From Bacteroidota bacterium (GTDB taxonomy: Bacteria > Bacteroidota > Bacteroidia > Bacteroidales > Prolixibacteraceae): a stretch of DNA of 64,000 nucleotides. Below are positions 18,266-63,300 of the stretch, in pieces; position 1 is the stretch's first letter, and the number at the start of each line of letters is the position of its first letter. A program made the translations under genes and the position numbers. The stretch lies in assembly GCA_023251435.1 (NCBI GenBank), contig JAHEYU010000022.1, positions 5,194 to 69,193 of the forward strand. Reading direction: 5' to 3'. The notes beneath the pieces are model-generated. The model had not been told where the DNA came from. It made no database searches and saw nothing but the letters and a program-made list of their open reading frames with translations.

Positions 18266-18291
18266 TAATCATCGATATAAATCAATATAGC

Positions 18292-39878: not shown

Positions 39879-40853
39879 ATGGCAGAAAACAAGCACATAC
39901 AACAAAAAATTGAAGACCGGTTAACCAGACTTACGAATCAGGAACCTGCAGAGCAAATTCTTTCAGCTCAGCAAATCGTTTCAGAAATTGAAACCATCAA
40001 CAGTCATGCAGCATTTGCTCTGGTTCAAAAACGAATTCAAAACAACAAAAGCACAATTTCTTTGCTGAATACTTTCAGCCGGATTGCCGCCATTCTTTTT
40101 ATTCCGCTGCTGCTTGCTTCTGTCTGGTTTTTTTACAATCAGCAAAAACCAACGCACCAACAATTTGCCATTCAGAAAATTACCAGCCCTCCGGGAATTC
40201 GCTCACAGGTAATTTTGCCCGACGGATCAAAAGTCTGGCTTAATGCCGAAAGTACCATTAAATTTCAGGTACCATTTCAGGAAAACAGCCGAAACATTGA
40301 TATCGTGGGTGAAGCTTTTTTTGATGTCGCCAGAAATCTCGAACAACCTTTTATCGTTCAATCGGGCAGCGTGATGGTAAAAGTATTGGGAACGCGTTTC
40401 AATTATAAAGCATTTGCTGAAGACAAAAATATTGAAGTGGTGCTTGAAGAAGGCAAAATAGCGCTGAACCTGCAAAATGATTCTGAAAATAAGGAAACAA
40501 TTTTGCGCCCCGGCGATCATGCGGTGATTGAAAAAGAAAGTAACAAGACTATCGTCAAGAACGAAAATATTAACAAATACATTGCCTGGCACACCGGGAA
40601 ACTGGTTTTCGACAACAGCCCAATGAGCGAAGTTGCCCGCTTACTCGAAAGATGGTACGGTGTTGAGGTGCAGGTTCAGGATTCGGAAATAATGAACTAC
40701 CGATTTACGACCACTTTCGAAAACGAATCGCTTTTCCAGGTTATCGAATTGCTTGGACTGTCATCACCAATCCGAATCAAATACGTTCCGGCCACAGTTG
40801 GAAAAAATAATCAGGCACAAACAAAATCAAAAGTTATCATCAGCAAAAAATAA
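39879..40853 (+). CDS. FecR-family anti-sigma factor
   Basis: One TM helix (IAAILFIPLLLASVWFFY). FecR core: LPDGSKVWLNAESTIKF...GEAFFDV...PFIVQSG.VMVKVLGTRFN. C-terminal ERWYGVEV. ATG at 39879 preferred over the TTG at 39867. Confidence 0.9.
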   Translation: MAENKHIQQKIEDRLTRLTNQEPAEQILSAQQIVSEIETINSHAAFALVQKRIQNNKSTISLLNTFSRIAAILFIPLLLASVWFFYNQQKPTHQQFAIQKITSPPGIRSQVILPDGSKVWLNAESTIKFQVPFQENSRNIDIVGEAFFDVARNLEQPFIVQSGSVMVKVLGTRFNYKAFAEDKNIEVVLEEGKIALNLQNDSENKETILRPGDHAVIEKESNKTIVKNENINKYIAWHTGKLVFDNSPMSEVARLLERWYGVEVQVQDSEIMNYRFTTTFENESLFQVIELLGLSSPIRIKYVPATVGKNNQAQTKSKVIISKK

Positions 40854-40979
40854 AAACCAATTGCCAATGACAAATTAATTCTCTTTTTAACGAAGAAAGG
40901 AAGTGCGCCAACACTTCCTTCCGGGTTACCCTTAACGGGCAGATCAATAATTGTTTCAAAAAATTAATCATTCAAATCT

Positions 40980-44414: not shown

Positions 44415-44426
44415 AATACGATCGAT

Positions 44427-45956
44427 ATGAAAAACAAGTATAAATATATAGGTATATGTGCTATCCTCATCTTTTCGTTGCTTTCAAGTTGCAACCAATT
44501 TGAGGAAATGAACACAAACCCTGATACCACTACCACGGTAAGTGCGTCTCTTTTGTGTACAAATGTGGTGTTGAAAGTCGCCAAATTTCCGGGCATTGAT
44601 GCGAAAGCGATGATTTCGGAGAATGCTTTGTCCAAATATGTTGGTTATGCCAACGAAGGCCAGATGGGTACACAATATAACACCATCGGAGGCACCGATT
44701 TTGGAGGATTGACCATTCTTCCGAATATTGAAAAACTGGTAGAATATGCCATAGGAAGCCCCAGTGAAAACTCATACAGGGGTGTAGGCAAATTTGCGAA
44801 AGCCCTTATGTTTTACCGGCTGACCATGCAAGTGGGCGACATGCCATACAGCGAAACAAACCAAGGCGAAAGCGGTAATTTCCGTCCCAAATATGATACT
44901 CAGGAAGCGATACTAACAGGCATATTGGATGAGCTGAAAGAAGCTGACCAATATTTTGCCAATGGGACAACTTTTGCCGGCGACCCTACACCATATAATG
45001 GCGATCCTGCCAAGTGGCGCAGGGCTACCAATGCTTTAGCGCTCAAAATTTTGATGTCGCTGAGCAAAAAAGAAAATGTTGCTTCATTAAACGTGAAAGC
45101 GCGTTTTGCGGAAATTGTAGCCTCAGGCAATCTTTTAACAAATACAACAGGTTATTTTGGACTTGTTTATAATTCAATAAATAAACAGCCAATTTATAGT
45201 ACAAGTCCACTTTTTACCGGTAGAACAATTCTCAGTTCCTTGCTCGTTAACAACCTGAAAAACCTGAACGACAGGCGGATGTATTATTTTGGTGAACCTG
45301 CCCCTGCTGAAATAGCTTCAGGAAAAACCCAAACTGACCCGAACGCTTATGTGGGCGTGGATGTTGCAATGGAATATTCACAAATGAATGCCAACCACAG
45401 CGCCAATAAATACTCGCTGATCAACCTTCGTTACCAGAAGGAAGAAGTTAACGAACCGCGCATGTTGCTTACTTATGCCGAACAACAATTGATACTTGCC
45501 GAAGCTCGCATAAAAGGATGGATTACGACCGGTACAGCAAAAGATTATTATGAGCAAGGAGTTAAATCGGCCTTGGCATCTACAATGGCGGTTAAGTCGG
45601 AATATGCCCATGGGATGGCCATCAACCAAGCTTATATTGATGGTTACTTTACAGGTGAGGCTGCATTTAAAACCACATCTGCAGACCAGTTAAAACAGAT
45701 TTGGATGCAACGGTACATCCTTAATTTCTTTCAGGATGCTCACGGCAGCTTCTTCGAATACAGACGGACAAGTTATCCGGAGTTTCCTATTAATGCGGCA
45801 ACAAGCCTGAATGAGAACAACAAAAACGGAATACCGATGCGTTGGTTGTACCCAAGTTCGGAAACCAATTACAACCGCGAAAACCTCATCGAAGCATTGG
45901 ATCGTCAGTACGAGGGGTTCGATGAAGTAAACAAACTCATGTGGTTGCTGAAATAA
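44427..45956 (+). CDS. SusD/RagB-family outer-membrane lipoprotein
   Basis: 509 aa with lipobox LLSSC. Sits 12 nt after SusC. TPR-like helical content (YAEQQLILAEARIKGW, QIWMQRYILNFF). Confidence 0.85.
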   Translation: MKNKYKYIGICAILIFSLLSSCNQFEEMNTNPDTTTTVSASLLCTNVVLKVAKFPGIDAKAMISENALSKYVGYANEGQMGTQYNTIGGTDFGGLTILPNIEKLVEYAIGSPSENSYRGVGKFAKALMFYRLTMQVGDMPYSETNQGESGNFRPKYDTQEAILTGILDELKEADQYFANGTTFAGDPTPYNGDPAKWRRATNALALKILMSLSKKENVASLNVKARFAEIVASGNLLTNTTGYFGLVYNSINKQPIYSTSPLFTGRTILSSLLVNNLKNLNDRRMYYFGEPAPAEIASGKTQTDPNAYVGVDVAMEYSQMNANHSANKYSLINLRYQKEEVNEPRMLLTYAEQQLILAEARIKGWITTGTAKDYYEQGVKSALASTMAVKSEYAHGMAINQAYIDGYFTGEAAFKTTSADQLKQIWMQRYILNFFQDAHGSFFEYRRTSYPEFPINAATSLNENNKNGIPMRWLYPSSETNYNRENLIEALDRQYEGFDEVNKLMWLLK

Positions 45957-46085
45957 TACTGTTTCGGCCTGTTGAGAAAAAGTAAATATGTATATTTTTG
46001 AAGAATAAGAAATGTGGGCAGCCAGTGAAATAAATAGATTTCCGGAGTTGCTCACATTTATTTTATAAACCCTAAAACCTAAAGA

Positions 46086-46898
46086 ATGATGCGAACAATA
46101 TTTCTATTTCCTGCCATTTTCATTTTCCTGCTGTTGGTACAGCCGTCAACCGCGCAGACCACGGGTTCCGTAAATCAGGATAATTTCCTGAAAAATGGTG
46201 TTGTTGCGCACCGCGGAGCATGGAAAAAAGACGGACTACCTCAGAACTCGATTGCTTCGCTAAAAAAGGCTATTAGCTTGGAAGTTGCCGGATCGGAGTT
46301 CGACGTGCAACTAACCGCCGACGGAGTTTTGGTACTAAACCACGATGCGGTTTATGAAGGTATGCACATCGAAAAAACAAAATATTCAGGTCTGAAAAAG
46401 CATCCGCTAAAAAACGGGGAAGTTCTCCCAACCCTCGATAACTATCTGAAAATTGGAATGAAACAGCAAAAGACCCGGTTAATTCTTGAATTAAAACCCT
46501 CGCAAATCAGCAAGGAAAGATCGTTGCTTCTGGCGCAGAAAGCGGTCGCGAAAGTTAATAAAATGCGGGCGCAACCCTGGATTACCTATATCAGTTTCGA
46601 CTATGACATTCTGAAAGAAATAGTTCGTTTAGACCCATCGGCAAAAACGATGTACCTCAACGGGGATGTTTCTCCGGAACAGCTAAAAGCTGATGGAATT
46701 TCCGGAGCAGATTATCATTTCAACGTTTTCAGAAAAGACGAAAATTGGATCAGCAATGCCCATAAAGCTGGAATTGAAACAAATGTATGGACTGTAAATG
46801 ATCCTTTGCTGATGGACTATTTCCTTGCCCGCGACATTGATTTTATTACTACCGACGAACCAGAAACCTTGCTGAAAAAAGTAGCTGAAATGGAATAA
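46086..46898 (+). CDS. Glycerophosphodiester phosphodiesterase (GDPD) family, secreted
   Basis: 270 aa with a signal peptide. VVAHRGAWKKDGLPQNSIASLKKAI...SEFDVQLTADGVLVLNHD and ...VWTVND are GDPD blocks. Confidence 0.85.
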   Translation: MMRTIFLFPAIFIFLLLVQPSTAQTTGSVNQDNFLKNGVVAHRGAWKKDGLPQNSIASLKKAISLEVAGSEFDVQLTADGVLVLNHDAVYEGMHIEKTKYSGLKKHPLKNGEVLPTLDNYLKIGMKQQKTRLILELKPSQISKERSLLLAQKAVAKVNKMRAQPWITYISFDYDILKEIVRLDPSAKTMYLNGDVSPEQLKADGISGADYHFNVFRKDENWISNAHKAGIETNVWTVNDPLLMDYFLARDIDFITTDEPETLLKKVAEME

Positions 46899-46966
46899 TT
46901 TTTTCGGCATGTTGTCAACGTGGGTAATCTTCCTAAATTTGACAGACTATACCGAAATACATCAAG

Positions 46967-48691
46967 ATGAAAAAATTAATCTATTCCGTTGTAATTCTTT
47001 GTTTTGCCATTCAAGCCTTTCCGCAAAAATATGTACAAGTATGGGGCGACGAATTCAACAAACCGGGTTTGCCCGACAGCACAAAATGGAATTACGAAGT
47101 GGGCAAAATACGCAATTCCGAATTGCAGTATTACACCTATAAACGCAGCGAAAATGCCCGTATTCAGGATACCGTTCTGATTATTGAAGCACGCAAAGAA
47201 CCTTTTCAGGGGGCAGCCTATACATCTGCAAGTTTAATTTCAAGGTACAAAGGCGACTGGCTGTACGGCAAATTCGAAATCAGGGCAAAAGTTCCCGGTG
47301 GAAAAGGAACCTGGCCGGCAATCTGGATGATGCCAACTGACAGCGAATATGGCGGATGGCCCAAAAGTGGAGAAATGGACATCATGGAATATGTGGGTTG
47401 GGATATTTCAAAATTGCATTTTACAACACATTTTGAAGGAACAAACGGAAGTGGCCATCAACAATCAGGAACTTCAGTATTTACCGCGCAACCTTACAGT
47501 AAGTTTATAACTTTTACATTTGTATGGACACCAACCAAACTTGAATGGTATGGCGACAACAAATTGTTTCACACCTATACAAAAACGTCCACCGATCCGA
47601 AAGTATGGCCTTACAATAAGATGTTTTATATGATCCTCAACCTGGCTTATGGTGGAAGCTGGGGTGGCCAGCAGGGAATCGACGATACAAAACTGCCACA
47701 CAAATTTTACATCGATTACGTCAGGGTTTATCAGTTACAAGAATCAGAAGGGCCGTTCTCTTTGAATATTGAACCTGCAACAGGCGGAACAGTAGAAGTT
47801 TCTCCCAAAATGGAGACTTATCCCGAAGGAACGATGGTAACCTTTACAGCCACCCCTGCAGAAGGCTATGAATTTGACAAATGGCTGCACCTTGGGTCGG
47901 CCAATCCGATGAAGGTTGAGGTAGTAAAAAACATGACTGTGATCCCGGTTTTTAAAAAGAAAAACGAGATAATTATTAATGGCGATTTCAGCCAGGGAAC
48001 AAAAAACTGGGGAAACTGGTATTTCCAAAGTACACAATGGAAAGCCACCGGAATAGTTGTTGACGGTGTTTATAAAATTAATGTAACACAACCGGGCACA
48101 GCCTACTGGCACATCGTAGATCAGCAACTGGCAATTCCGTTGGTAAAAGACGTCACTTATCTCGTTACTTTCGACGCTTGGGCCGACAATCCAAATTCGA
48201 TGGATGTTTTCCTTTCGAAAAACCATTCCGATTATGGAAACTACTATTCTACCGTAAAATCCATAACCGCAACAAAACAAAAATTTTCGTGGACTGTAAA
48301 AATGGCTCAGGCAAGCGATCCCAACTGTCGCTTTGGGTTTGGAATAGGCAAGTTTACGGGCAATGTTTACCTCGACAATGTAAGCATCGTAAAGCAGGTT
48401 TCAACCGGAAATAAAGATTTGACAAATATTGAAAATGTTGGATTTAGCCTTTTCCCTAACCCGACTACAGGCGAAATAATCATTTCAGGCGATTCGTTCA
48501 ATTCACCTGTCACACTTTGCCTTTTCAATCTTCAGGGACAATTGATTTCAACTATTCTGAATAATCAGTACCTCATGAAAGGAAATCCGGTTAAAATCAA
48601 TTTGAAAGAAGAAGGTGCAAGTCAGGGAATTTACCTTCTCCGTTTAACTACAAGGGATAATTCCTTTGTCCGGAAAGTAATTCTGAACTAA
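46967..48691 (+). CDS. GH16 (laminarinase-type) + beta-sandwich modules + T9SS C-terminal domain
   Basis: 574 aa with WGDEFN, GKFEIRAKVPGGKGTWPAIWMMP and the catalytic block GEMDIMEY (ExDxxE). Followed by a GGTVEVSP...GYEFDKW repeat and a CBM4/9-like module. Tail FPNPTTGEIIIS...GIYLLRLTT. Confidence 0.9.
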   Translation: MKKLIYSVVILCFAIQAFPQKYVQVWGDEFNKPGLPDSTKWNYEVGKIRNSELQYYTYKRSENARIQDTVLIIEARKEPFQGAAYTSASLISRYKGDWLYGKFEIRAKVPGGKGTWPAIWMMPTDSEYGGWPKSGEMDIMEYVGWDISKLHFTTHFEGTNGSGHQQSGTSVFTAQPYSKFITFTFVWTPTKLEWYGDNKLFHTYTKTSTDPKVWPYNKMFYMILNLAYGGSWGGQQGIDDTKLPHKFYIDYVRVYQLQESEGPFSLNIEPATGGTVEVSPKMETYPEGTMVTFTATPAEGYEFDKWLHLGSANPMKVEVVKNMTVIPVFKKKNEIIINGDFSQGTKNWGNWYFQSTQWKATGIVVDGVYKINVTQPGTAYWHIVDQQLAIPLVKDVTYLVTFDAWADNPNSMDVFLSKNHSDYGNYYSTVKSITATKQKFSWTVKMAQASDPNCRFGFGIGKFTGNVYLDNVSIVKQVSTGNKDLTNIENVGFSLFPNPTTGEIIISGDSFNSPVTLCLFNLQGQLISTILNNQYLMKGNPVKINLKEEGASQGIYLLRLTTRDNSFVRKVILN

Positions 48692-48732
48692 ATAATCACA
48701 TACTCAAAACCAAGATTAAACCAAAACAAACC

Positions 48733-50118
48733 ATGAAACTAAAATTAGCCTGCCTTATGGCTGCATTTACCTTTCTATTTGCTGTTCCAAATCTTGTGGC
48801 GCAACCATATCAGGCCACCTGGGAATCGCTCGATTCGCACAAAATGCCCGATTGGTACCACGATGCTAAAATCGGATTGAGTATGCACTGGGGTGTTTAT
48901 GCCGTTCCGGCCTGGGCACCGCGCGAAAAAGAAATTTCGTATGCCGAATGGTATGGAAGGCGAATGATGGAACCTAAAAATCCGACATATACCTACCACC
49001 GTAAAAAATATGGCGAAAGTTTTACCTACGACGATTTTATCCCGATGTGGAAAGCCGAATCATATAAACCAGATGAATGGGCGAAGTTTGCCAAGCAGAT
49101 GGGCGCAAAATACATGTTTATTACCTCGAAACACCACGATGGGTTCTGCTTGTGGCCCACCAAATACACCGACCGAAACGCAATGAAGATGGGCCCGAAA
49201 AAGGACATTTTGGGCGAGTATTTTAAAGCAGCCCGTAAAGAAGGACTAAAAGTTGGTTTGTATTATTCGCTTTACGAGTGGTTCAATCCACTTTACACAG
49301 GTAAAGATATTCCATATTCAGGCCTGAAAAAGGTCAACAATTATGTCGATGATTTTATGATACCGCAAATCAAGGAACTCATTGATCTTTATCATCCGGA
49401 TTTTTTCTTTTTCGATGGGGAGTGGGACCATCCGGAACCATTCTGGAAAATGAAGGAAGTGGTCGCCTATTATTATAATGAGGCGGCCAAACGCAACCAG
49501 GAGGTTTTTGTGAACGACCGCTTTGGCAAGGAAAACCGCGGAAAACATGGCGATTTGTACAATGTTGAGTATAGCTACGAAAAGGGTAACGAAGGTTTGC
49601 TCACACACAAATGGTCGTTCTGGCAGGGTATCGCAAAAACATTTGGCTACAATCAGGACACCGATATGGAAGATTGTCTTAGCCCCAAACAGTTTATCGA
49701 CAAAACGATCGACGGCGTTGCCCGCAACGGGAATTTCGACATCAATGTTGGACCTACTGCCGCCGGATTGATACCAGAATACGAGCAATACCCGCTACTG
49801 AAATTGGGTGAATGGCTGAAAGTAAACGGGGAAGCTATTTACGGCACACGCCCATGGACCACCCAGGTAGAAGGCGATGCCCGCTTCACTTCGAAAGGTG
49901 AATTTGTATTTGCAACTTTCCTGAAATGGCAGGGCGAAGAGTTTAAACTGAAAGCAGTTAAACCACTGGAAGGCTCGAAAATTACAATGCTTGGTGTTCC
50001 CGGCGAACTGGAATGGAAATGGAATACGGCTGATGGTCTGACCATTGTTTACCCGCGTGATAAAGCCCGTCCAACTTTGTGCAGCTATGCATGGGCATTC
50101 AAAATTCAGGTGAAATAA
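48733..50118 (+). CDS. GH29 alpha-L-fucosidase
   Basis: 461 aa with WYHDAKIGLSMHWGVYAVPAW, YMFITSKHHDGFCLWPT and FFFDGEW. Confidence 0.9.
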   Translation: MKLKLACLMAAFTFLFAVPNLVAQPYQATWESLDSHKMPDWYHDAKIGLSMHWGVYAVPAWAPREKEISYAEWYGRRMMEPKNPTYTYHRKKYGESFTYDDFIPMWKAESYKPDEWAKFAKQMGAKYMFITSKHHDGFCLWPTKYTDRNAMKMGPKKDILGEYFKAARKEGLKVGLYYSLYEWFNPLYTGKDIPYSGLKKVNNYVDDFMIPQIKELIDLYHPDFFFFDGEWDHPEPFWKMKEVVAYYYNEAAKRNQEVFVNDRFGKENRGKHGDLYNVEYSYEKGNEGLLTHKWSFWQGIAKTFGYNQDTDMEDCLSPKQFIDKTIDGVARNGNFDINVGPTAAGLIPEYEQYPLLKLGEWLKVNGEAIYGTRPWTTQVEGDARFTSKGEFVFATFLKWQGEEFKLKAVKPLEGSKITMLGVPGELEWKWNTADGLTIVYPRDKARPTLCSYAWAFKIQVK

Positions 50119-52997: not shown

Positions 52998-53232
52998 GTT
53001 TAGTCCTGAATTATAATCAAATGGTTAGCCGAGGTATAATATTAATTCATCACCTGAAACAAAAAGGCATATAATTTTGTATATTTAGTTCACACAATAC
53101 TATATATCAGCAAAAAGAAAAACCAAAATCTTAGCTGAAAAACCATTATTCAATGTATTAACAAGATGGATCATGTTAAGAGATCAGTCAAATTTCAATA
53201 TAAAAAATAATCTGCTGTCTTTCGAAAAGAGA

Positions 53233-54099
53233 ATGACGGTAGGTTTATTTTTTGCATTGATCCTGGCACTTTTCCCTATTTCCGGATTTTCATCTTCACT
53301 AACCTATGGGTTCCCGTTATCATCAGCGAATCTAAACGGTGAATTGACCAAAACAAGGATAAACGAAACCTACGAATCATCATTTCTGAAGCAAGATCCT
53401 GTATTGGGAATAAAAAATCAAACTGCCAATTCGGGATATTTCCCCCTTGCTTATACTGGGAATGGAATTGATCACATGAATATTAATCTTGTTGCGCTAA
53501 ATTCTACAGGTATAAAAATTGGTGATGAAATTGGGGTTTTTGATGGGGATTTATGCGTAGGCGCTGCCATTATCGAAGACAAACACATAAAAGAAAACGG
53601 TATCAGTATTCCTGCGTCGGCTAACGACCGAACAGAATCCAAACCAAACGGATACACTTCCGGACATAAAATAATACTTAAATTACACCGAAAAGACATC
53701 GTTTACCTTCTATATTTTGTAGTAGTTAACAATAGCCGTGATATTTTCGAAAAGAACGAATCGATGTTTGCTTTGATAGATTTTTCTAAATCAACCAGTA
53801 CCAGTAATTTTCTAAACCAAAAAGAAATCAATCTTTATCCAAACCCATTTAACCATTCTATAAAGATTGAAATTTACCTGTCGCAACCACAAAAACTGGT
53901 TTGCGAAATATTTGATGTAAATGGAAATAATATACGCACATTCGCTCCTGACGATGCTGAAGCGAACAATAATTTGGTTGAATTTACCTGGGATGGAAAA
54001 AATAATGACGGGCAAAGGGTGGCTTATGGAATATATTTTTGCCGGACAAACCAAACAATTACCAAAATAATATTCAACTCCTCGCAAAATTCTAATTAA
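53233..54099 (+). CDS. Hypothetical secreted protein with T9SS C-terminal domain
   Basis: Start moved to the ATG at 53233 (MTVGLFFALILALFPISGFSS). Central module ...IKIGDEIGVFDGDLCVGAA...GHKIILKLH. Tail LYPNPFNHSIKIEI...GIYFCRTNQ. Confidence 0.6.
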   Translation: MTVGLFFALILALFPISGFSSSLTYGFPLSSANLNGELTKTRINETYESSFLKQDPVLGIKNQTANSGYFPLAYTGNGIDHMNINLVALNSTGIKIGDEIGVFDGDLCVGAAIIEDKHIKENGISIPASANDRTESKPNGYTSGHKIILKLHRKDIVYLLYFVVVNNSRDIFEKNESMFALIDFSKSTSTSNFLNQKEINLYPNPFNHSIKIEIYLSQPQKLVCEIFDVNGNNIRTFAPDDAEANNNLVEFTWDGKNNDGQRVAYGIYFCRTNQTITKIIFNSSQNSN

Positions 54100-54638: not shown

Positions 54639-57600
54639 ATGAAAAAGTGTATCCTATTATTCATCGGTGCAATCCTTTTCGCAATTGGACTAAATGCTCA
54701 AACCACCATTCCCGGAGGTTATTTTTCAGTTGACAGGACTTTAACTCTGGCTAACAGTCCTTACATAACTTCAAATCAGGATATTGCTGCAGGAGTAACA
54801 GTTACAATCGAGAATGGAGTAGAAATCAGATTTAATCAGGGTTGTTATTTCCAGGTTTTCGGCACCTTAAATGCCACAGGAACTAAATTTACTGCGAACA
54901 ACAGCACTGCAAAAGGTTTTTGGGACGGCATTTATGTGTCTTATGAATGGTATGCCGCAGTTGGTATTGTAACGCTTGATAATTGTACCCTTGAGTATGC
55001 TAGCAACATTTGGGTGAGGAAAGGGCAGCTTACTTTAAAGAAATCCACCATTAATAATTTTTCAGATATGGGTGTCCGACTCTATGCAACGGGAACTTTG
55101 GACATCACTGAAACAACAATAAAAAATTGCAATTACCCCCTCCATTTAAATGGACCTGGGATAATAAAGGCAGGAAGCGGAAATATCTTAACCGGAAATA
55201 CATACAATACTGTTTATCTCCAATTTCAGGAAATTTCCGGTACTTTTTATATGCCCGATTTAGGCATTCCTTACCGATGCGATTATATGAATGTTACCAA
55301 TACAGGCAATCTGCTGATTTCGCCTGGAGCTAAGCTCTGGTTCGTTAATTGCGAATTTACGGTTCAGGGAAAAATTAAAGCTCTTGGAACCAGCGAAAAA
55401 CCAATCGTTTTTGATATGCATCCGGGAGTCTCTTACTACCTTGGAATAAACATAACAGACAGTGCAATTGATTCTGCAAGTATTTTCAAAAACTGTATCT
55501 TTAAAAATGCCCAATACGATTACGATGGCTATTCTGCAATGGCAATTGATGCGGCATCACCAAAATTTGAAAACTGCGAATTTTCAGCAAACGGGCGAAA
55601 CCTGATGGTAACCGGAATAAGCCAACCAACTTTTTCTAATTGTATTTTTAAACCTTCGACCATTCTAAACGGTGAGGCTTATAACATCGCTGTAGATATG
55701 AACACAAATATTGATTTTTCTACCGATTCTATCAAGTTTAACAACAAAGAAATCCGTGCAATTAGAATTCTACCATCTTCAGTAACAGGCAATGCACAAC
55801 TAAAAAAAATATCCTTCAAAAATCTTGAAAATCCAACTTATTGCCTTTATGGTACTACCACTGTTGATGAATCTGCCACTTTGGTAATCGATCCCGGGGT
55901 TGTAATTAAGTGCAGGCAATACAATTCATTAATTGTTGCAAACGGTACATTTACCGGCATTGGTACTGAAACAGAACCCATTATTTTCACCCACCTTGCC
56001 GATGATAATTTTGGTAATCCTCTTGACTCTGAAAACAACGGACAAGCTAATATAAGCAACAGTAATTCAGGTAGGATTGCCATTTATGGTACTGCAACAT
56101 CAAAAATTAAAAACTGGAAGATCTATTATGGCGGCTACGATTCGAATAACTGGGCTGTTTATGTTTCAAAGGGGAATATCGTAGAAAATTGCGAAATAAA
56201 AAATTCATACCGTGGTATCTATTTCTATGATAATGCTCAGGTTCTGAATAACACATTCGTTAATATTAATTATTACCCCGTTGGGAGAAAAGTTAATCAG
56301 GGGAATCCGGTTTTATTGGGTAATACAATCTCAAACGTTGGATATATAGGGATCCTAATTGGCGAATTTGGTACTGATTCTCCGACTCTTAAACAAATGG
56401 ATTTTGTTGGGGTCACCAACGTAGCCTATATTATTGAATCGCAGCTATCTATCGCAGAAGGAAATGTAGTTACCATTGATCCGGGAGTAGTGATTAAATT
56501 TAATCAAAGGTACTACGGATATCTTTCTGTTAGTGGTGCACTGAAAGCAAACGGAGAAGCAAACAATAAAATCATTTTCACCTCTATAAACGATGACTCG
56601 GCAGCAGGCGATACCAATAACAATGGAACTGCCTCGGTAGCCAACAACTATGATTGGCAAGGTTTGGATTTCGCCGGAACTGCAAGTGATACTGAAAATA
56701 TCCTTAAAAACTGCGAAATCAGGTACTGTGGTTATCCCGCTTATTGGGATGGAGCAATACGAATTACTGATTGCCGGGTAGTGATTGATTTAACCAAAGT
56801 GAATTTTAGCTATAGTGGCGCATTGTGCATATTTGGTAATGCAAATCCGGAGATAACCAACAACTTATTTTATAATCTGGGCAATGCACCTATCTATATG
56901 GATATGTTTTCGAATCCCACGTTCTCTGGAAACTTGTTATCCAATGTACCACGGAGAGGCTTACGAATTCGAGGTGGGGCCATTAATGGAACTATCCCGG
57001 TGAGAAACTTTGCCGGTTTTAATAACATTACTTATATAATAGAAGAAACCATGACTGTTACCAACCAGTTAACCATCCCGGCTGGATTAACATTTAAGAC
57101 CGGAAACGGAAATGGAAGATGGAACATACAGGGAAAACTTGATATACAAGGAACTACTGAAAAGCCTGTTATATTTACCACTCAGGAAGATGATTTGTAT
57201 GGCAGTCCGAATGATTTACAAAATAATGGGCAACTCGGATTGAATAATTACGGAAGCTACTTTGTTTTCTACGACCAGGCGGATGATGCCAGCACAATCG
57301 ATTATGCGTTATTCCGGTATTCCTCATCAAATTCAATACAAACGACCAATGCGTCACCCAAAATACTAAACACAACATTCCAAAACTTACCATATCCTGG
57401 GATTGCCCTGGCAGGATCAAGTACTCCATCCATAAACGGTTGTACTTTCAACAACGCAGTATTCCCGTTCACTACCTCATTGGTAACCTATCCGGCAGAA
57501 ACTACCGGCAACACCATTTCGGGCACAACAGGAAGGGCCATCAGGGTTTCCGATGAAACGCTGACGCGGGATGTAACGCTGATTAAACGCGATTTTGCAG

Positions 57601-59150
57601 GAATAACAAACATTCCATACATCTTCCAGAATTATACCGTTGGTAATGGAGCTATACTTACCATCAACCCGGGAATAGTATGTAAGTTTATGCAAAACGG
57701 ATATCTTTATATCTATAACGGGTTACTGGCTAAAGGTGGCAGTACAACTGGCAGTACGATTGTATTCACCGCCGATCGCGATGATTTTTATGGCGGTGAT
57801 ACTTATGCAAACGGTGATGCAAATCTTCCAACCAAAAATTGGTGGCGCGGCATCTATTTTTTTAATGAATCGATTGATGAAAACTGCTTCCTCGAAAACT
57901 GCATTTTGAAAAATGCCTCATATAGTTCCAGCAATGGAGCTGTAACTTTAGACAATGCCTCGCCAACAATTAAGAATTGCCTTTTTGAAAGTAATTATTA
58001 TGGTATTATTTCAAACAATACTTCATTGCCTATAATAACCGATTGCGATTTTGTAGGAACAGATCCATCCTCCGGTTATGGTATTTGGAACAAGACTGCA
58101 ACCAATACTGTGACTGCCGAAGGCTGCTGGTGGAACAGCAATACAGGGCCAAGGCATGCCTCTAATCCGTTAGGAACAGGTGAGCGGGTATCCGATTATG
58201 TAGATTTTACTCCTTGGGCAACTCAATTGGCTAAGCCTGTTTTAGGTGATGTTAGCATGAACGGAGAAGTAAAACCATTTGATGCATCATTGGTATTACA
58301 ACATGCAGCAACTGTTATCACTTTAACTGATAAGCAGAAAGGTGTTGCCGATGTTAGCGGGAATAGTATGATTACTTCTTATGATGCATCGCTGATACTT
58401 CAATACACCGTTGGGTTAATTAGCAGATTTGATCCAGAACCCCTTGGAATAAAATCGGCCATCATTAGTGATTATGCTTCAATCTCATTCCCCGATAACG
58501 TAAGCGAACCAGTTAAGAAAACATTCGAAATACCTATAACTATCACAACATCCAAAGGCATCAAAGCCCTGGATATGAAATACTCAATCAACCAAAACCA
58601 TGTTAAGTTTTTAAGAATCAACAAAGCAAAACTTCCGGCAGGAATTGCTGTTGAAGCAGGATTTAATCTTAAAAACAGCGAAATCACCATTTCAATGGCA
58701 TCTGCTTACGATTTGGAATTGATCGACAAACAATTAATTCTTGAATTCGAATTTAGGGATTCAGGCATAACCGAATCGCAGTTTAACCTGAACACCGCAA
58801 TGGCCAACGATCACATTCTGAATGAGAATCTGGGTTATGCTACAATCAGCAGTAAATCGTCGATTACATGGTCCGATAACCAATCGAAACTGAATGAACC
58901 AATTGTATTTGCAGATCAGTTTGCAATACATGCAAAATTTGAATTAGCCAAAGCTAATCAGGATTTGTTTGTACAGGTAACTGATATGACTGGCAGAATA
59001 CTCTACAAACGGACTGTAAATAACCTTAGCGCAGGACTTCAGTATATCGATTTACGATATACTGACTTTGACCGGCCAGGCAAGGGCGTCTATATCCTGA
59101 ATCTACGGGCTGAAGAATTCAGCTATTCAAAAAAACTTCTGATAAAGTAA
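54639..59150 (+). CDS. Giant (1503 aa) T9SS surface protein: repeated parallel-beta-helix-type modules + dockerin-like + cohesin-like modules
   Basis: Signal peptide MKKCILLFIGAILFAIGLNAQ. At least four recurrences of the block (I/V).PG(V/I)V(I/C)KF ... G.(L/F)...G....P(I/V)(I/V)FT...DD..G...(N/D)..NG. Dockerin-like and cohesin-like segments are listed separately. Tail GVYILNLRAEEFSYSKKLLIK. Confidence 0.85.
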   Translation: MKKCILLFIGAILFAIGLNAQTTIPGGYFSVDRTLTLANSPYITSNQDIAAGVTVTIENGVEIRFNQGCYFQVFGTLNATGTKFTANNSTAKGFWDGIYVSYEWYAAVGIVTLDNCTLEYASNIWVRKGQLTLKKSTINNFSDMGVRLYATGTLDITETTIKNCNYPLHLNGPGIIKAGSGNILTGNTYNTVYLQFQEISGTFYMPDLGIPYRCDYMNVTNTGNLLISPGAKLWFVNCEFTVQGKIKALGTSEKPIVFDMHPGVSYYLGINITDSAIDSASIFKNCIFKNAQYDYDGYSAMAIDAASPKFENCEFSANGRNLMVTGISQPTFSNCIFKPSTILNGEAYNIAVDMNTNIDFSTDSIKFNNKEIRAIRILPSSVTGNAQLKKISFKNLENPTYCLYGTTTVDESATLVIDPGVVIKCRQYNSLIVANGTFTGIGTETEPIIFTHLADDNFGNPLDSENNGQANISNSNSGRIAIYGTATSKIKNWKIYYGGYDSNNWAVYVSKGNIVENCEIKNSYRGIYFYDNAQVLNNTFVNINYYPVGRKVNQGNPVLLGNTISNVGYIGILIGEFGTDSPTLKQMDFVGVTNVAYIIESQLSIAEGNVVTIDPGVVIKFNQRYYGYLSVSGALKANGEANNKIIFTSINDDSAAGDTNNNGTASVANNYDWQGLDFAGTASDTENILKNCEIRYCGYPAYWDGAIRITDCRVVIDLTKVNFSYSGALCIFGNANPEITNNLFYNLGNAPIYMDMFSNPTFSGNLLSNVPRRGLRIRGGAINGTIPVRNFAGFNNITYIIEETMTVTNQLTIPAGLTFKTGNGNGRWNIQGKLDIQGTTEKPVIFTTQEDDLYGSPNDLQNNGQLGLNNYGSYFVFYDQADDASTIDYALFRYSSSNSIQTTNASPKILNTTFQNLPYPGIALAGSSTPSINGCTFNNAVFPFTTSLVTYPAETTGNTISGTTGRAIRVSDETLTRDVTLIKRDFAGITNIPYIFQNYTVGNGAILTINPGIVCKFMQNGYLYIYNGLLAKGGSTTGSTIVFTADRDDFYGGDTYANGDANLPTKNWWRGIYFFNESIDENCFLENCILKNASYSSSNGAVTLDNASPTIKNCLFESNYYGIISNNTSLPIITDCDFVGTDPSSGYGIWNKTATNTVTAEGCWWNSNTGPRHASNPLGTGERVSDYVDFTPWATQLAKPVLGDVSMNGEVKPFDASLVLQHAATVITLTDKQKGVADVSGNSMITSYDASLILQYTVGLISRFDPEPLGIKSAIISDYASISFPDNVSEPVKKTFEIPITITTSKGIKALDMKYSINQNHVKFLRINKAKLPAGIAVEAGFNLKNSEITISMASAYDLELIDKQLILEFEFRDSGITESQFNLNTAMANDHILNENLGYATISSKSSITWSDNQSKLNEPIVFADQFAIHAKFELAKANQDLFVQVTDMTGRILYKRTVNNLSAGLQYIDLRYTDFDRPGKGVYILNLRAEEFSYSKKLLIK
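58245..58422 (+). other. Dockerin-like duplicated Ca-binding segment
   Basis: GDVSMNGEVKPFDASLVLQHAA ... ADVSGNSMITSYDASLILQYTVG. These are two ~22-residue repeats, each with a D.S.N(G/S).....D loop followed by an (A/S)L(V/I)LQ helix, as in type I dockerins. Confidence 0.55.
58473..58850 (+). other. Cohesin-like module (in the 1503-aa protein)
   Basis: ISFPDNVSEPVKKTFEIPITITTSKGIKALDMKYSINQNHVKFLRINKAKLP...EITISMASAYDLELIDKQLILEFEF follows the cohesin pattern (F.IPV........I...D....Yd...l.f..i......... i.i..a......... l..l.F). Coordinates are approximate. Confidence 0.45.
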
Positions 59151-59313
59151 GCAAATCGGAGAAAAGCGCCTGCCTTATGGCAGTGTGGTTTTCAACCGGC
59201 AGCAAGCATTTTAGATGAAATCGCATTTTTGCCATTACGATCAGATTAACCGATCGACAGGCACAAATGCTTTACTGGAAACAGTACCAGACACTAAAAT
59301 AAAATTTATACAG

Positions 59314-62300
59314 ATGAACAGATTTATAAGATATATTTTTGCCTCTTGCCTTTGGATATGTTGCTTCACATTGCTTTCAGCAAGCACAGCGACAGCCCAA
59401 ACAACCATTGGTTTCAGTATCGACGGGGCAACAGTTCTAGAAAAAAACACCTTCACCATAGCGGTGAAAGCCAACACTCTGCTAACCGGAAACGATATTT
59501 ATTCTTTCCGCTTTGGGTTGTCCTACAACGCCAACTACCTCGAATTTCTGAACATTGAATCAGTTGGACCAGTGCTGGAAAACTGGGGAATGCCAACATA
59601 CAGCAACAGGACCCCCGGTCAAATCATCATAGCCGGAGCAGGTTCTTCGCAGCTTACCGGAGATGGAGTTATGTTTTACCTGAAATTCAAAGCTTTGCGA
59701 GGTGGTGGAACATACGTTGATAACATTTCAGGCCTAAGTTATCTGAATGAAGGGTTACCAGCGATGACACTTACCAGGTGCTATATCAATGCAACCTATC
59801 GCTCCTATCCCAATATCTCACCTGACTCAAGAACATTGTTTGTTGGAGAAGAGGTACAGATGACTGTATCCGGAGGAGCTGCTCCATACGTTTACAGTAC
59901 AGTCGATACGGAAGTTGCAGTAATCAATAACTTAACCAAAGTCAAAGGCAAAGCTCCGGGGATAACCCAGGTTTTTGTTACAGACAACGATGGTGAAACA
60001 AATTACACAACTGGCAATTTTGACGTAAGGGCAATTAAAATGAGTGTGATACGCAGTAGCGCGTGGCCTCAGGAAACTTTTAATTTGCCAATAAAAATAG
60101 AAATTGCACCAGGGACAACGGTTTACTCGGGATATTTTGAACTCACGCACAATACAAACGTTCAGGGAATAAAAGAAAGTGTCCAAACCGGAGATTTTGA
60201 GATTTCGATTCAAAGAAATGCTGTTACAAATCTAACACGGGTTTCATTTTCTTCAGTCAACGGAATAACCGGAACCGGAATTCTTTGCAACCTGGGATTC
60301 AAGGCCATAAACAGTGGGAATCATTATTTCGATTTTCAAAACATGAAATTCGACGAGAAACTTTTAGCATTTGATTACCGTGAATATGTGCAGGTCTACA
60401 CCTTACCTACCCTAACAATTACGCCAAACAGCGGCACACTGATGTGGGGGGCAACACAAAAAATTACAGTTGCCAATGGAACTCCACCAATTAGTTATTC
60501 AGTGTCAAATCCTTCACTTGCATCCATCGACGAATTGGGCAATCTGAGTGCTTTATCCGGAGGGTTTGTAAAAGTTACTGCAACGGATACTCATGGGGCA
60601 ACAAAAACGAGTGGCGATTTTAAAATACTTGATAATCAATTTTCAATTATCAATACCGATGGAAATCTCGATTATGTAACCCGCGTTCCAATTTCAACAT
60701 CGCCATTACCAGCGGGGAAATTAATTTATGATTTCGACGGTACAATTACTTTTGTGGAAAATGACCTTGAGTTTATCGGAATTGACCCGGTAGGATCGAG
60801 TATGTTGACAGAATTTGTCAGGACAGGAAATTCGGTTCATATTGTCGGAGCAACAAGTACCGGAATTCCATCAGGAATAATCTGTTATTTAAAATTCAAA
60901 ATAAAGAATACATTACCTATTGATGGTCAGTCAACAATCACCATAAATTCACTCACTGCCAATGAAGCTTCACTGTTCTCGACCACTGCCAATGGAAAAA
61001 TCACACGCGTTTTTCAATTGAGTTACCGGCCTGTTGCTAATGCAGGAATCAATAAAACTGTATCCGAGGGTGTCAGCGTTCAACTTGATGGCTCAGCTTC
61101 TTATGACAATGATGGCAATGCGCTTACCTATTTATGGACTGTACCACCGGGAATAACGTTAGATGATAAAACGCTGCAAAAACCCACCTTTATTGCTCCT
61201 GAAGTGAATGTAAATACCATTTACCCCTTCTCGCTGATTGTAAACGATGGAACTTCTGATTCCGATCCTTCCAGTGTGACCATCAACGTTCTTCAAATTA
61301 ATAAAGCGCCGGTAGCCAATGCCGGCCCTGAGAAAAGTTACAATGAAGGAATTTTCATATCGCTTGATGGCAGCCTGTCATCCGATCCTGATGGAGATGT
61401 GATCTCCTACAAATGGACTTCGCTGGATGGAATTATTCTTTTTGATCCGCTTAGTGTTTCACCATCGTTTATTGCGCCACAAGTGAATGCCGACAAAAAT
61501 TATCGTTTTAAGCTCGAAGTAGCTGATGGGGTGCTTACTTCACCTTCAGATGAAGTTACCATTACGATTACAAATCTGAACAAAAAACCCGTTGCCCGTG
61601 CCGGAGACGATCAAAATGTAAATGAAGGCGCTTTGGTTCAACTTGATGGATCGTTATCAGCTGATGTTGACGGAGAAGCCATAACCTTTAAATGGACTGC
61701 ACCGGCAAATGTAGTTTTATCCTCACCAACTGCAAGTAAACCAACATTTACGGCGCCAATGGTCCATCTCGACTCAACAGTGGTTATTTCGCTGGTGGTG
61801 AATGACGGACATGTAGATTCGGATCCAGACAATGTTTTGATTAAGATTAAAAACCTGAATATACTGAGCACCGAAGCACAAATACTGAACGGACAACTTA
61901 CAGGAGCTGATTCAGTAAAAGTTGATCAGGCTTTGCTTCAGGTAAATTTATATCTGCCATACGGAACGAATCCAACTGCACTGGCTCCAACTTTCCAGAT
62001 TTCACCGAAAGCAAATATTGTCCCGGCTGGCGGATCTGTCAGAAATTTTACCTCACCGGTTAACTATACGGTAACTGCCGAAGATGGAACAACTAAAAAA
62101 GTATATTCTGTCAGAGCCTTTATACCCACAGTTACCCTGAAAAGAGCACTCGCTGCAGGATGGAACTGGATTTCGTTAAGTGTTGTTCCTCCAGATATTA
62201 AAATAACACCGGTTTTAGAAAGCCTTTCGCTTGCAAACCTTGACTATATAAAATCGGCAACAACTTCGGCAGTGTATTACACACCTTCAGGTTGGTTCGG

Positions 62301-63300
62301 CGATTTGGTCAATATTCCGCAATACGAAATGCTGATGTTCAAAAAAACAACCGCTCAATCATTTACTTTATCAGGAAAAGAGATTAATCCAACCTTGACA
62401 ACCATACCAGTTTCAACGGGCTGGAACCGTATCGGGTATATTCTGAAAGGCAATGCAAAACTGAGCGAAGCATTTGAAACAACCAGTCTTCCAACCGGAG
62501 AAATACTGCTGAAGAGCAAAGAAGCTTCAGCCGTTTATTACCCTGCGTCAGGATGGGCGGGCGACCTCGATTCACTGAGAATCCTGACTGGATACATGAT
62601 GAAAACAGTTTCGAATGCCAACCTGAAATACTTGGCCAATAGCGCCAAATTGAAATCGGCACAGCAATCCCTTTTCACCCGGAGTAATTTGTATCGTGAA
62701 TATCAGATCAATCCGCCAGCATTCGAAAATTCGGCTAACCTGATTGGTGAACTGGTAAATTCGAACAACGAAAATATGATCCGGAAAGGAGACCTGCTCC
62801 TCGCCTATTCGCAAAACGAACCAAGAGGTGTTACCGAAGCTTGTTTTGTTCCGGCACTTAACCGTTATGTTTTTATTCTGACCATGTTCTCTAATGCGAA
62901 CCACGAAAAACTTAACTTCAGGATAAAATCGCTGGCAAACAATTCGGAGGAAGAAATAGCTGACCAACTGGTTTTCAATACCGACGAAGTTTACGGACAG
63001 GCTTTGAATCCATTCCAGCTTCATCTGACCAATCCCACAGGAATAAAGGAAACAGTTACTGATCCAACCGTATTGGTGTATCCAAATCCGGTGACCGACG
63101 AACTTCAAATCATATCGGAAGCTAAAATACAATCAGTCACCCTTTCCGGATTGTCAGGCAATTGCATTCAAATTCTCTCCAATATTTCAGAATATACCTT
63201 GCTGATGAATACCAGAAACCTGGTGAAGGGAATGTATATGCTGAAAATTGAAACATCGAAAGGCATCGCAATCAGGAAACTGATTAAATCAACCAACTGA
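59314..63300 (+). CDS. Giant (~1328 aa) T9SS surface protein: 3 cohesin-like modules interleaved with Big_2-like modules, 3 PKD-like repeats, cadherin-like and C-terminal modules
   Basis: Start moved to the ATG at 59314 (MNRFIRYIFASCLWICCFTLLSASTATAQ). Big_2-like: LFVGEEVQMTVSGGAAPYVYSTVDTEVAVI...GITQVFVTDNDG and ATQKITVANGTPPISYSVSNPSLASIDELGNLSALSGGFVKVTATD. Tail VYPNPVTDELQI...GMYMLKIETS. Confidence 0.85.
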   Translation: MNRFIRYIFASCLWICCFTLLSASTATAQTTIGFSIDGATVLEKNTFTIAVKANTLLTGNDIYSFRFGLSYNANYLEFLNIESVGPVLENWGMPTYSNRTPGQIIIAGAGSSQLTGDGVMFYLKFKALRGGGTYVDNISGLSYLNEGLPAMTLTRCYINATYRSYPNISPDSRTLFVGEEVQMTVSGGAAPYVYSTVDTEVAVINNLTKVKGKAPGITQVFVTDNDGETNYTTGNFDVRAIKMSVIRSSAWPQETFNLPIKIEIAPGTTVYSGYFELTHNTNVQGIKESVQTGDFEISIQRNAVTNLTRVSFSSVNGITGTGILCNLGFKAINSGNHYFDFQNMKFDEKLLAFDYREYVQVYTLPTLTITPNSGTLMWGATQKITVANGTPPISYSVSNPSLASIDELGNLSALSGGFVKVTATDTHGATKTSGDFKILDNQFSIINTDGNLDYVTRVPISTSPLPAGKLIYDFDGTITFVENDLEFIGIDPVGSSMLTEFVRTGNSVHIVGATSTGIPSGIICYLKFKIKNTLPIDGQSTITINSLTANEASLFSTTANGKITRVFQLSYRPVANAGINKTVSEGVSVQLDGSASYDNDGNALTYLWTVPPGITLDDKTLQKPTFIAPEVNVNTIYPFSLIVNDGTSDSDPSSVTINVLQINKAPVANAGPEKSYNEGIFISLDGSLSSDPDGDVISYKWTSLDGIILFDPLSVSPSFIAPQVNADKNYRFKLEVADGVLTSPSDEVTITITNLNKKPVARAGDDQNVNEGALVQLDGSLSADVDGEAITFKWTAPANVVLSSPTASKPTFTAPMVHLDSTVVISLVVNDGHVDSDPDNVLIKIKNLNILSTEAQILNGQLTGADSVKVDQALLQVNLYLPYGTNPTALAPTFQISPKANIVPAGGSVRNFTSPVNYTVTAEDGTTKKVYSVRAFIPTVTLKRALAAGWNWISLSVVPPDIKITPVLESLSLANLDYIKSATTSAVYYTPSGWFGDLVNIPQYEMLMFKKTTAQSFTLSGKEINPTLTTIPVSTGWNRIGYILKGNAKLSEAFETTSLPTGEILLKSKEASAVYYPASGWAGDLDSLRILTGYMMKTVSNANLKYLANSAKLKSAQQSLFTRSNLYREYQINPPAFENSANLIGELVNSNNENMIRKGDLLLAYSQNEPRGVTEACFVPALNRYVFILTMFSNANHEKLNFRIKSLANNSEEEIADQLVFNTDEVYGQALNPFQLHLTNPTGIKETVTDPTVLVYPNPVTDELQIISEAKIQSVTLSGLSGNCIQILSNISEYTLLMNTRNLVKGMYMLKIETSKGIAIRKLIKSTN
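59401..59796 (+). other. Cohesin-like module 1
   Basis: TIGFSIDGATVLEKNTFTIAVKANTLLTGNDIYSFRFGLSYNANYLEFLNIESVGPVLENWGMPTYSNRTPGQIIIAGAGSSQLTGDGVMFYLKFKALRGG, 132 aa by my count. Confidence 0.5.
60040..60395 (+). other. Cohesin-like module 2 (approximate bounds)
   Basis: ETFNLPIKIEIAPGTTVYSGYFELTHNTNVQGIKESVQTGDFEISIQRN...VSFSSVNGITGTGILCNLGFKAINSG. Confidence 0.45.
60640..61015 (+). other. Cohesin-like module 3 (approximate bounds)
   Basis: VTRVPISTSPLPAGKLIYDFDGTITFVENDLEFIGIDPVGSSMLTEFVRTGNSVHIVGATSTGIPSGIICYLKFKIKN. Confidence 0.45.
61030..61866 (+). repeat. Three exact-period 279-nt (93-aa) tandem repeats encoding PKD-like modules
   Basis: The Pro codon of PVA(N/R)AG falls at 61030, 61309 and 61588. 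Each unit reads PVANAG....EG..V.LDGS.S.D.DG..(L/I).(Y/F).W..........KP.F.AP.V.......F.L.V.DG...S....V.I. Confidence 0.85.

Follow-up and report, generated by a model that had tools for sequence, protein, structure and literature searches.

A conserved gene pair encoding dockerin- and cohesin-bearing type IX secretion proteins, a predicted surface cassette of Prolixibacteraceae and related lineages

We analyzed a stretch of 64,000 nucleotides (referred to as the window) on contig JAHEYU010000022.1 of a Bacteroidota genome assembly (GCA_023251435.1). An earlier note, made from the letters alone, had proposed that two adjacent giant proteins encoded here carry dockerin- and cohesin-like modules and form a cellulosome-style surface assembly. 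The two genes, referred to as A and B, are co-directional on the + strand. Gene A (54639..59150) encodes a protein of 1503 amino acids (aa), in agreement with the gene call on the source contig. According to its open reading frame (ORF) and to Pfam and TIGR04183 matches, it comprises a signal peptide, a right-handed beta-helix of ~1170 aa, a dockerin, a cohesin module (X) and a sorting domain of the type IX secretion system (T9SS). Gene B (59314..63300) encodes a trivalent cohesin protein of 1328 aa that also has a T9SS sorting domain and, as spacers, PKD/Ig modules. The mechanical ORF of gene B starts at 59215; a 1328-aa gene is called on the source contig from 59314, and Met34 at this position (MNRFIRY..., the beginning of a signal peptide) is almost certainly the true start. 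A third giant gene, C, starts at 63402 on the same strand and occupies the window up to position 64000; in the gene table of the source contig it encodes a ~3433-aa protein with CARDB and PKD modules and a T9SS C-terminal sorting domain (CTD). In total, the A-B pair contains one dockerin, located in A, and four cohesins, X in A and B1, B2, and B3 in B. The C-terminal tail of A has its closest relative, 82% identical along 310 aa, in a Prolixibacteraceae metagenome-assembled genome (MAG); Draconibacterium, Maribellus, Sunxiuqinia, and Mariniphaga come next. These relatives indicate that the source organism is a Bacteroidota of the Bacteroidales/Marinilabiliales type, in agreement with the origin assumed earlier.

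The dockerin of A (aa 1202-1261; 58242..58421, + strand) consists of two near-identical segments, DVSMNGEVKPFDASLVLQ and DVSGNSMITSYDASLILQ, each formed by a Ca-loop plus a helix. The duplication of a 22-residue segment, previously placed at 58245-58422, was recovered at aa 1203-1259 (nucleotides 58245-58415). Its identity as a dockerin was confirmed by Pfam: Dockerin_1 (PF00404) matched aa 1202-1256 with 26.0 bits when the whole protein was searched and with 32.6 bits for the excised segment, at a cut-off of 22.9 bits. Solved dockerins were also matched in a sequence search, namely 8x39 (6e-10), Clostridium thermocellum Xyn10B (2ccl, 2e-4), and the ScaB dockerin (4uyq, 3e-4). In the AlphaFold2 (AF2) model the module folds into three helices (model residues 20-30, 38-44, and 54-65) with a predicted local distance difference test (pLDDT) score of 90-97. 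The two Ca loops, DVSMNGEVKPFD and DVSGNSMITSYD, are canonical at positions 1, 5, and 12. Among related proteins the two halves follow the consensus GDVS[LM]NG.[VI].[PA][YF]DASL[VI]LQ and ADVSGNG.I[ST][SA][YF]DASLILQ, and the Ca-loop residues Asp1, Asn5, and Asp12, the helix residues Ala-Ser-Leu..Leu-Gln, and also S and G are nearly invariant in both halves. In clostridial type-I dockerins, internal symmetry of this kind underlies a dual binding mode. By analogy, the symmetry of the A dockerin might allow such a mode as well, which is only a possibility here.

The dockerin is followed by a linker of ~18 aa (58422..58475, + strand) that is predicted to be disordered (pLDDT below 50 at model residues 76-83) and then by module X (aa 1280-1406; 58476..58856, + strand), the most divergent of the four cohesins. 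A search of the single sequence of X against Pfam gave no match to Cohesin (PF00963, cut-off 24.1 bits), and the same was true for B3. Ortholog sub-alignments of both modules were therefore built for comparison by hhalign and profile searches. Aligned in this way, X matched B1, B2, and B3 with 96-97% probability (E 7e-11 to 4e-9); the X profile gave only weak matches to the PDB (E 0.05-0.25). AF2, which was used to check the nine-stranded cohesin fold for X only, returned a beta-sandwich of 9-10 strands with a pLDDT of about 90. A Foldseek search of the PDB with this model yielded cohesins as 17 of the 18 top matches, with 2vo8 as the best single-domain match (9e-9), followed by 4dh2, 2jh2, 5nrm, and 4uyq, at target TM-scores of 0.6-0.66. 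In addition, Pfam Cohesin is found at the position of X in the distant A orthologues P0034, P0035, and P0038. The cohesin-type module of ~125 aa that had been noticed behind the dockerin is thus well supported for X by the hhalign and Foldseek matches.

The 310-aa tail of A was modeled by AF2 as three helices plus two beta-sandwiches (pLDDT 83, predicted template modeling score (pTM) 0.69). A construct of 220 aa containing only the dockerin and X reached a pLDDT of 86 and a pTM of 0.83, despite the low values of the linker. As X accounts for ~57% of this chain, a pTM of 0.83 suggests that the dockerin is confidently placed relative to X. According to this model, the A dockerin is predicted to dock on cohesin X, either in cis or in trans.

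Gene B encodes, from its N-terminus, modules in the order Coh–Big_2–Coh–Big_2–Coh (Coh, cohesin), with a T9SS sorting domain at the C-terminus; all coordinates refer to the + strand. Cohesin B1 (ORF aa 64-195; 59404..59799, borders from the local hidden Markov model (HMM) envelope) directly follows the signal peptide and matches PF00963 with 35.3 bits. It is followed by a first Ig-like module of the Big_2 family (PF02368; 59812..60018, approximate borders from the alignment), by cohesin B2 (ORF aa 272-397; 60028..60405), and by a second Big_2 module (ORF aa 400-466; 60412..60612, the best stretch of the PF02368 match). Big_2 scores 51.4 bits in Pfam over the two stretches. B2 reaches 24.2 bits for PF00963, directly at the cut-off of 24.1, and aligns with B1 at 99.8% probability in hhalign. 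Cohesin B3 (ORF aa 474-601; 60634..61017) was assigned by hhalign, by its ortholog profile, and by orthologous modules: it aligns with B1 at 99.6% (E 3e-24), its ortholog profile retrieves type-I cohesins from the PDB (5nrm_A at 4e-8; also 6kgc, 2xdh, 4uyp, 1g1k, and 1aoh), and eight of the ten modules orthologous to B3 pass the Pfam Cohesin threshold. The cohesin assignment by PF00963 accordingly stood in part, as B1 and B2 pass the cut-off and B3 and X do not match as single sequences; the arrangement described before, with three cohesins interleaved with Big_2-like modules and the first directly behind the signal peptide, was recovered with Pfam for B1 and B2, the profile for B3, and PF02368 for the spacers. 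Across 74 complete cassettes (see below), all four cohesins have Ala in strand beta6, Phe in beta7, and Asn-Glu where beta8 ends, as determined by column conservation over the 4 x 74 modules; by the same joint analysis, X does not possess the loop motifs common to B1-B3.

Downstream of B3, three PKD / K319L-like PKD modules form a spacer (61027..61884; PF22352 4.4e-27 and PF18911 7.9e-24, three stretches each). The spacer is followed by an Ig-like module of the DUF5018 type (61978..62130; PF16410 5.4e-9, slightly under the cut-off), which matches the N-terminal domains of PDB entries 3s30 and 3hbz. The subsequent region of about 300 aa (~62152-63054, aa ~980-1280) gave no sequence match in Pfam or the PDB and is missing where distant lineages have a short B-like protein (~850 aa).

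Using the A tail plus a few B homologues, we gathered 84 related loci. In these loci and in the window, every A-like ORF contains one dockerin and one cohesin, and each complete B-like ORF contains exactly three cohesins. In all 83 loci with downstream DNA (83/83), the A-like ORF is directly followed by a B-like ORF on the same strand. When the search was started from the B side (P0056, P0061, P0062, and P0067), all four genes had a gene encoding a beta-helix, a dockerin, and a CTD directly upstream, and a cohesin was detected as well in three of these four upstream genes. Such a strict adjacency calls for a functional tie between A and B. The genes upstream of A are not conserved across the loci, indicating that the A-B pair moves as a unit. 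Gene C occurs as third member of the cassette in the closer clade only (L001, L002, and most of L005-L062), and neither a dockerin nor a cohesin is on record for it. Carriers of the cassette comprise Prolixibacteraceae, Draconibacterium, Saccharicrinis, and Paludibacter on the Bacteroidales side as well as Ignavibacteriales, Melioribacteraceae, Chlorobiota, and Zixibacteria. At least two carriers are in culture, Plebeiibacterium marinum D04 and Saccharicrinis sp. 156. Four MAGs harbor two paralogous A-B copies each on separate contigs (L007/L008, L016/L019, L014/L017, and L018/L020), so the cassette can be duplicated inside a genome. Among 1.84 billion representative proteins, a profile of the A tail retrieved at least 877 clusters at 50% identity (E<=1e-30); typical members have 1450-2300 aa with the three modules at the extreme C-terminus. 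Two poly-dockerin proteins, P0080 and P0145, were rejected as family members, since they consist of canonical D-x-N-x-D-G tandems and obtained high scores through repetition only. The A-B pair is a real and widespread cohesin–dockerin cassette, predicted to act at the cell surface, of the Fibrobacterota–Chlorobiota–Bacteroidota (FCB) superphylum and, as far as the window shows, is not a cellulosome.

The region adjoining gene A upstream (53173-54099) encodes a 308-aa protein with an FlgD_ig/T9SS sorting domain and N-terminal ~200 aa that belong to no recognised family. A similar ORF upstream of A is present in just 5 of 85 loci and hence lies outside the core cassette. A scan for sigma-70 promoters and terminators around genes A and B yielded hits at chance level, the sigma-70 model being unsuited to Bacteroidota promoters.

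The spacing of the C-terminal modules of A is conserved as well. The linker between dockerin and X measures 17-23 aa in 70 of 74 cassettes, the tail behind X 90-104 aa, and the whole unit of dockerin, linker, X, and CTD is conserved in length. Mean pairwise identities over the 74 complete cassettes amounted to 69% for the dockerin, 43% for B1, 41% for B2, 35% for B3, 30% for X, and 27% for the sorting domain; the last 250 aa of the A beta-helix before the dockerin were 55% identical over 68 non-duplicate cassettes. The dockerin is therefore the best conserved module of the cassette and X the least conserved cohesin. The difference between dockerin (69%) and X (30%) suggests constraints on the dockerin beyond X.

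Both proteins carry the signals expected for export by Sec and T9SS. By inspection of the translations, N-terminal Sec signal peptides were identified in A (MKKCILLFIGAILFAIGLNAQ; 54639..54698, + strand) and B (MNRFIRYIFASCLWICCFTLLSASTATAQ). The type-A C-terminal sorting domain of A (58902..59147, + strand) matches TIGR04183 with 32.5 bits (cut-off 23) and also Pfam Por_Secre_tail, and was modeled by AF2 as a beta-sandwich (model residues 229-309). That of B (63076..63288, + strand) matches PF18962 with 39.6 bits (cut-off 27) and TIGR04183 with 36.6 bits, so that the T9SS sorting domains claimed for both C-termini hold. Components of the T9SS machinery (PorK/L/M/N, Sov, and PorU/V) are not encoded within the 64-kb window. 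At least nine other proteins of the window bear a T9SS CTD, most of them carbohydrate-active enzymes (CAZymes), which by sequence implies an active T9SS. Type-A sorting domains are normally cleaved, and the cargo is attached to the cell surface after export by Sec and T9SS. The passenger of A (aa 21-1193; 54699..58217, + strand) matches Beta_helix (PF13229, 6.9e-29) in six stretches. Inspection by eye revealed a motif of the type I.PG.V.KF...G....A.G....PI.FT...DD..G recurring about five times; a BLASTP self-comparison of A detected no internal repeats at E<=1e-3.

From these data we derived the following model. A and B would be exported by Sec and subsequently by T9SS, and their type-A sorting domains would either anchor them to the outer membrane or lead to their release there. 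A would expose its long beta-helix passenger, with the ~310-aa tri-module (dockerin, ~20-aa linker, X, and sorting domain) at the membrane-proximal end, and B would present its three cohesins, spaced by Ig-like modules, at the distal N-terminus, with Ig and PKD modules as a stalk. The single symmetric dockerin may then serve as the plug and the four cohesins as sockets: the dockerin would bind X, whether in its own chain or, head-to-tail, in another A molecule, and/or, probably, B1-B3. As a result, the A beta-helix proteins might be multimerized or cross-linked on the surface as an adhesin or coat array with an adhesive or protective role. We rate the chances as slightly better than even that the A dockerin plugs into cohesins of the cassette and thereby multimerizes the beta-helix proteins into a non-enzymatic surface array. 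The earlier proposal of a docking of A to B or to itself finds strong backing in the gene linkage (83/83 loci, together with the four loci reached from the B side), and its self-docking option is indirectly supported by the pTM of 0.83; binding itself, its Ca dependence, the partner cohesin, and the role of the assembly are what we infer from these findings.

Several observations weigh against this interpretation. The least conserved cohesin, X, fits poorly as the sole socket of a very conserved plug. The distance matrix of the dockerin correlates with those of all four cohesins alike (raw Pearson r 0.83-0.87). When a background derived from the CTD, the Ig spacers, and the end of the beta-helix was regressed out, partial r values of 0.19-0.31 remained for all four, singling out no partner; likewise, joint column conservation over the 4 x 74 cohesins revealed few shared residues and no clear partner-specific patch. 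Position 3 of the Ca loops is occupied by Ser instead of Asn or Asp in 74/74 cassettes for loop 1 and in 72/74 for loop 2, which marks the loop as a family-specific variant (D-x-S-x-N-G). The contact between dockerin and X is inferred from the pTM alone, not from coordinates or a predicted aligned error matrix, the training of AF2 included cohesin–dockerin complexes from the PDB, and single-chain AF2 cannot separate an intramolecular clasp from head-to-tail contacts between molecules. A sequence search with the A passenger gave no match in the PDB. Finally, other dockerin-bearing proteins may be encoded beyond the 64-kb window.

A more specific form of the array appears possible, although we hold it only tentatively: a self-assembling, non-enzymatic surface lattice or fiber, widespread among FCB bacteria, in which the dockerin would enter X of a neighboring A molecule to form head-to-tail chains and also the three sockets of B, which would provide branch points, thereby arraying the long beta-helix passengers on the outer membrane.

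Alternatively, the dockerin could do no more than clasp X within the same chain and so form a base near the anchor, with the B cohesins acting as Ig-like spacers or adhesin modules for partners other than dockerins and without any docking between A and B. The pTM of the dockerin-X construct, the short linker of conserved length, and the conserved length of the whole dockerin-X-CTD unit agree with such a clasp, and so does the absence from X of the loop motifs common to B1-B3. Moreover, cohesin-like folds with uses other than dockerin binding are known, as exemplified by the CLIPPER domain of a fibrillar adhesin (9ifr), which is among the structural matches. Against a mere clasp in cis, the strict adjacency of A and B in 83/83 loci asks for a functional tie, the conservation of the dockerin at 69% next to an X at 30% suggests constraints beyond X, and B1-B3 retain the beta6, beta7, and beta8 residues that they share with X. 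We consider this explanation unlikely.

Quite improbable, in our judgment, is a true cellulosome-like system, in which B would be a scaffoldin recruiting dockerin-tagged enzymes encoded elsewhere and A would be one client. The protein B, with three tandem cohesins plus a surface-anchoring domain, agrees with the several-cohesin scaffoldin that characterizes cellulosomes, and a comparable model has been proposed for Cloacimonadota (PMC8542988). The genomic setting also lends itself to this explanation, as the window is devoted to hemicellulose degradation and encodes numerous secreted CAZymes. A large region for hemicellulose/xylan utilization extends over 867-33382 and 39120-50118 and encodes two GH43 enzymes (one with CBM6), two GH10, GH30, GH2, GH92, GH16 with CBM4_9, and a fucosidase, along with SASA-type acetyl and glucuronyl esterases, a SusC/SusD pair, and an extracytoplasmic function (ECF) sigma/FecR anti-sigma pair. 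However, the other CAZymes and T9SS-tailed proteins of the window lack a dockerin: a dockerin HMM that also recognizes clostridial dockerins detected none besides that of A in all six reading frames of the 64-kb window, the next best match having E=1.6. Many dockerin-bearing CAZymes, as typical for cellulosomes, are hence not encoded in the window, and A itself is a beta-helix protein and no recognised CAZyme. In addition, no carbohydrate-binding module (CBM) occurred on B among Pfam matches down to E=1. With no other dockerin in the window and no CBM on B, two defining features of a cellulosome are missing as far as the window shows. Furthermore, the ratio of one dockerin to four cohesins is invariant over 83 loci whatever the genomic context, and such a fixed count across lineages is unlike the variable client sets of cellulosomes. 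The cellulosome-style framing of the earlier note was thus not supported.

Related dockerins do occur on other CTD-bearing metagenome proteins (P0033-P0049), which would suit a cellulosome-like system with further clients. P0033, P0036, and P0039-P0046 carry a related variant of the dockerin, GDVSGNGEITAFDASLIL...ALDAALVLQYTVGLITEFP, with a helical linker and an FlgD_ig-type sorting domain behind it, and the passengers of this group comprise LVIVD-repeat, CARDB, and other modules. Against a role as clients, P0033-P0049 are not assignable to cassette-carrying genomes, and the neighborhood of P0036, a dockerin-CTD protein unrelated to the cassette, contained no cohesin gene.

Three further observations concern the surroundings of the CAZyme genes. 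The segment 34147-36819 (- strand), which separates the CAZyme cluster from an amino-acid permease gene, has a GC content of 0.356-0.374 versus about 0.43 around it. It encodes a protein with an FRG domain, another that resembles REase_MTES_1575, and a 361-aa ORF without Pfam match; it looks like a small inserted defense or mobile islet. Two tandem, slightly overlapping paralogues that belong to the nucleoside-hydrolase-like Sde182 family (8e-72 and 2e-108) are located at 17252-19749, the second of which also has an Sde0182 C-terminal domain. A 666-aa ORF inside the CAZyme cluster (23991-25991) had no Pfam match at E<=1e-5.

A reading of the dockerin- and cohesin-like segments as decayed remnants or accidental likenesses with no binding role is highly improbable: X and B3 fail in single-sequence Pfam searches, B2 lies right at the cut-off, and Ser replaces Asn/Asp at Ca-loop position 3, but the dockerin is the best conserved module, whose Ca-loop and helix residues hardly vary among 74 cassettes, profile and fold evidence is strong for all four cohesins, and the family comprises at least 877 clusters at 50% identity.

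The modules of the cassette resemble those of clostridial cellulosomes. As in the type-I pairs of C. thermocellum (CipA/Xyn10B, 1ohz/2ccl) and A. cellulolyticus (ScaB Coh6/Cel5, 5nrm), the A dockerin consists of a duplicated, symmetric Ca-loop plus helix; sequence, profile, and fold matches to clostridial modules were obtained, and a multi-cohesin protein with a cell-surface anchor is present. In contrast to clostridial cellulosomes, the cassette belongs to Gram-negative bacteria and employs a T9SS sorting domain as anchor instead of SLH domains or sortase. It has one dockerin, none on the enzymes of the window, and no CBM; dockerin and cohesin reside about 20 aa apart in one polypeptide, the loops are of the D-x-S-x-N-G type, and the stoichiometry is fixed and conserved across phyla. 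The cohesins of the glycoside hydrolases GH84C and GH33 of C. perfringens (2w1n, 2vo8, and 2jh2), the best structural matches of X, serve non-cellulosomal protein-protein assembly. They differ from the cassette in that they belong to Gram-positive toxin/enzyme complexes, share 11-15% identity, and operate in another dockerin context.

Outside the cellulosomes, the non-cellulolytic archaeon Archaeoglobus fulgidus possesses the cohesin/dockerin genes AF2375/AF2376, in which both modules reportedly occur in one protein and a further cohesin adjoins. To our knowledge, wide conservation of this pair as a cassette has never been demonstrated. Searches with the cassette cohesins, by sequence as well as by fold, retrieved the A. 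fulgidus cohesin 2xdh. Unlike the A-B cassette, the A. fulgidus pair is archaeal and lacks T9SS, a beta-helix passenger, and a three-cohesin partner. Work on these non-cellulosomal modules is cited in PMC9012536 (refs 167-168), and scaffoldin-like proteins have been proposed for anaerobic methanotrophic (ANME) archaea (PMC9012536).

Two systems from the FCB superphylum come closer to the cassette. For Candidatus Stygibacter (Cloacimonadota), a T9SS-anchored scaffoldin was proposed from sequence analysis only (Williams et al. 2021, PMC8542988), and like B it combines a signal peptide, several cohesins in tandem, and a T9SS domain at the C-terminus. In that organism GH18, GH57, and peptidases bear the dockerins, and CBM2/CBM3 are present on the scaffoldin (PMC8542988), which makes for a cellulosome-like enzyme complex; our cassette has just one client, a beta-helix protein, lacks a CBM, and is a fixed unit of two genes. 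In the Chlorochromatium epibiont (Chlorobiota), Cag_2037 (cohesin) and Cag_2038 (dockerin) are adjacent giant proteins whose binding was modeled (bioRxiv 10.64898/2026.03.19.712371). Like A and B, they come from neighboring genes of an FCB-group bacterium and are giant surface proteins, rich in Ig modules, of which one has a cohesin and the other the complementary dockerin. They differ in type I secretion (T1SS) with an RTX domain, a single cohesin, an alginate-lyase-like passenger, and their occurrence as a lineage-specific pair.

Cohesin and dockerin modules, and the general idea of their non-cellulosomal use, are already known. Non-cellulosomal modules, some in Bacteroidetes, were identified by sequence analysis (Peer et al. 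2009, as represented in papers citing it), and automatic annotation at NCBI labels some members of the present family "dockerin type I domain-containing" or "cohesin domain-containing". In a full-text literature search, no description was found of a cassette consisting of a beta-helix-dockerin-cohesin-CTD protein and a three-cohesin protein. The two-gene cassette with its fixed stoichiometry, the dockerin-cohesin-CTD tri-module with predicted self-docking, and the breadth within the FCB superphylum appear to be undescribed so far.

The role of cohesins and dockerins outside cellulosomes is a long-standing question, dating back to the cataloguing of these modules in non-cellulolytic bacteria and archaea, for which the cassette with its one plug and four sockets represents a clean test case. 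It also calls for caution, as the co-occurrence of cohesin and dockerin in a polysaccharide-degrading genome need not mean a cellulosome. If the modules bind, the cassette would provide protein engineering with a new and apparently orthogonal cohesin–dockerin pair with the D-x-S-x-N-G loop variant, cohesin–dockerin contacts would be able to order T9SS cargo into higher-order surface structures, and the cassette would stand as a conserved architectural element of the Bacteroidota cell surface. Should the lattice form of the assembly be true, cohesin and dockerin would have a new role as the glue of a Gram-negative, T9SS-dependent surface coat or adhesin, which would be open to study in the cultured carriers.

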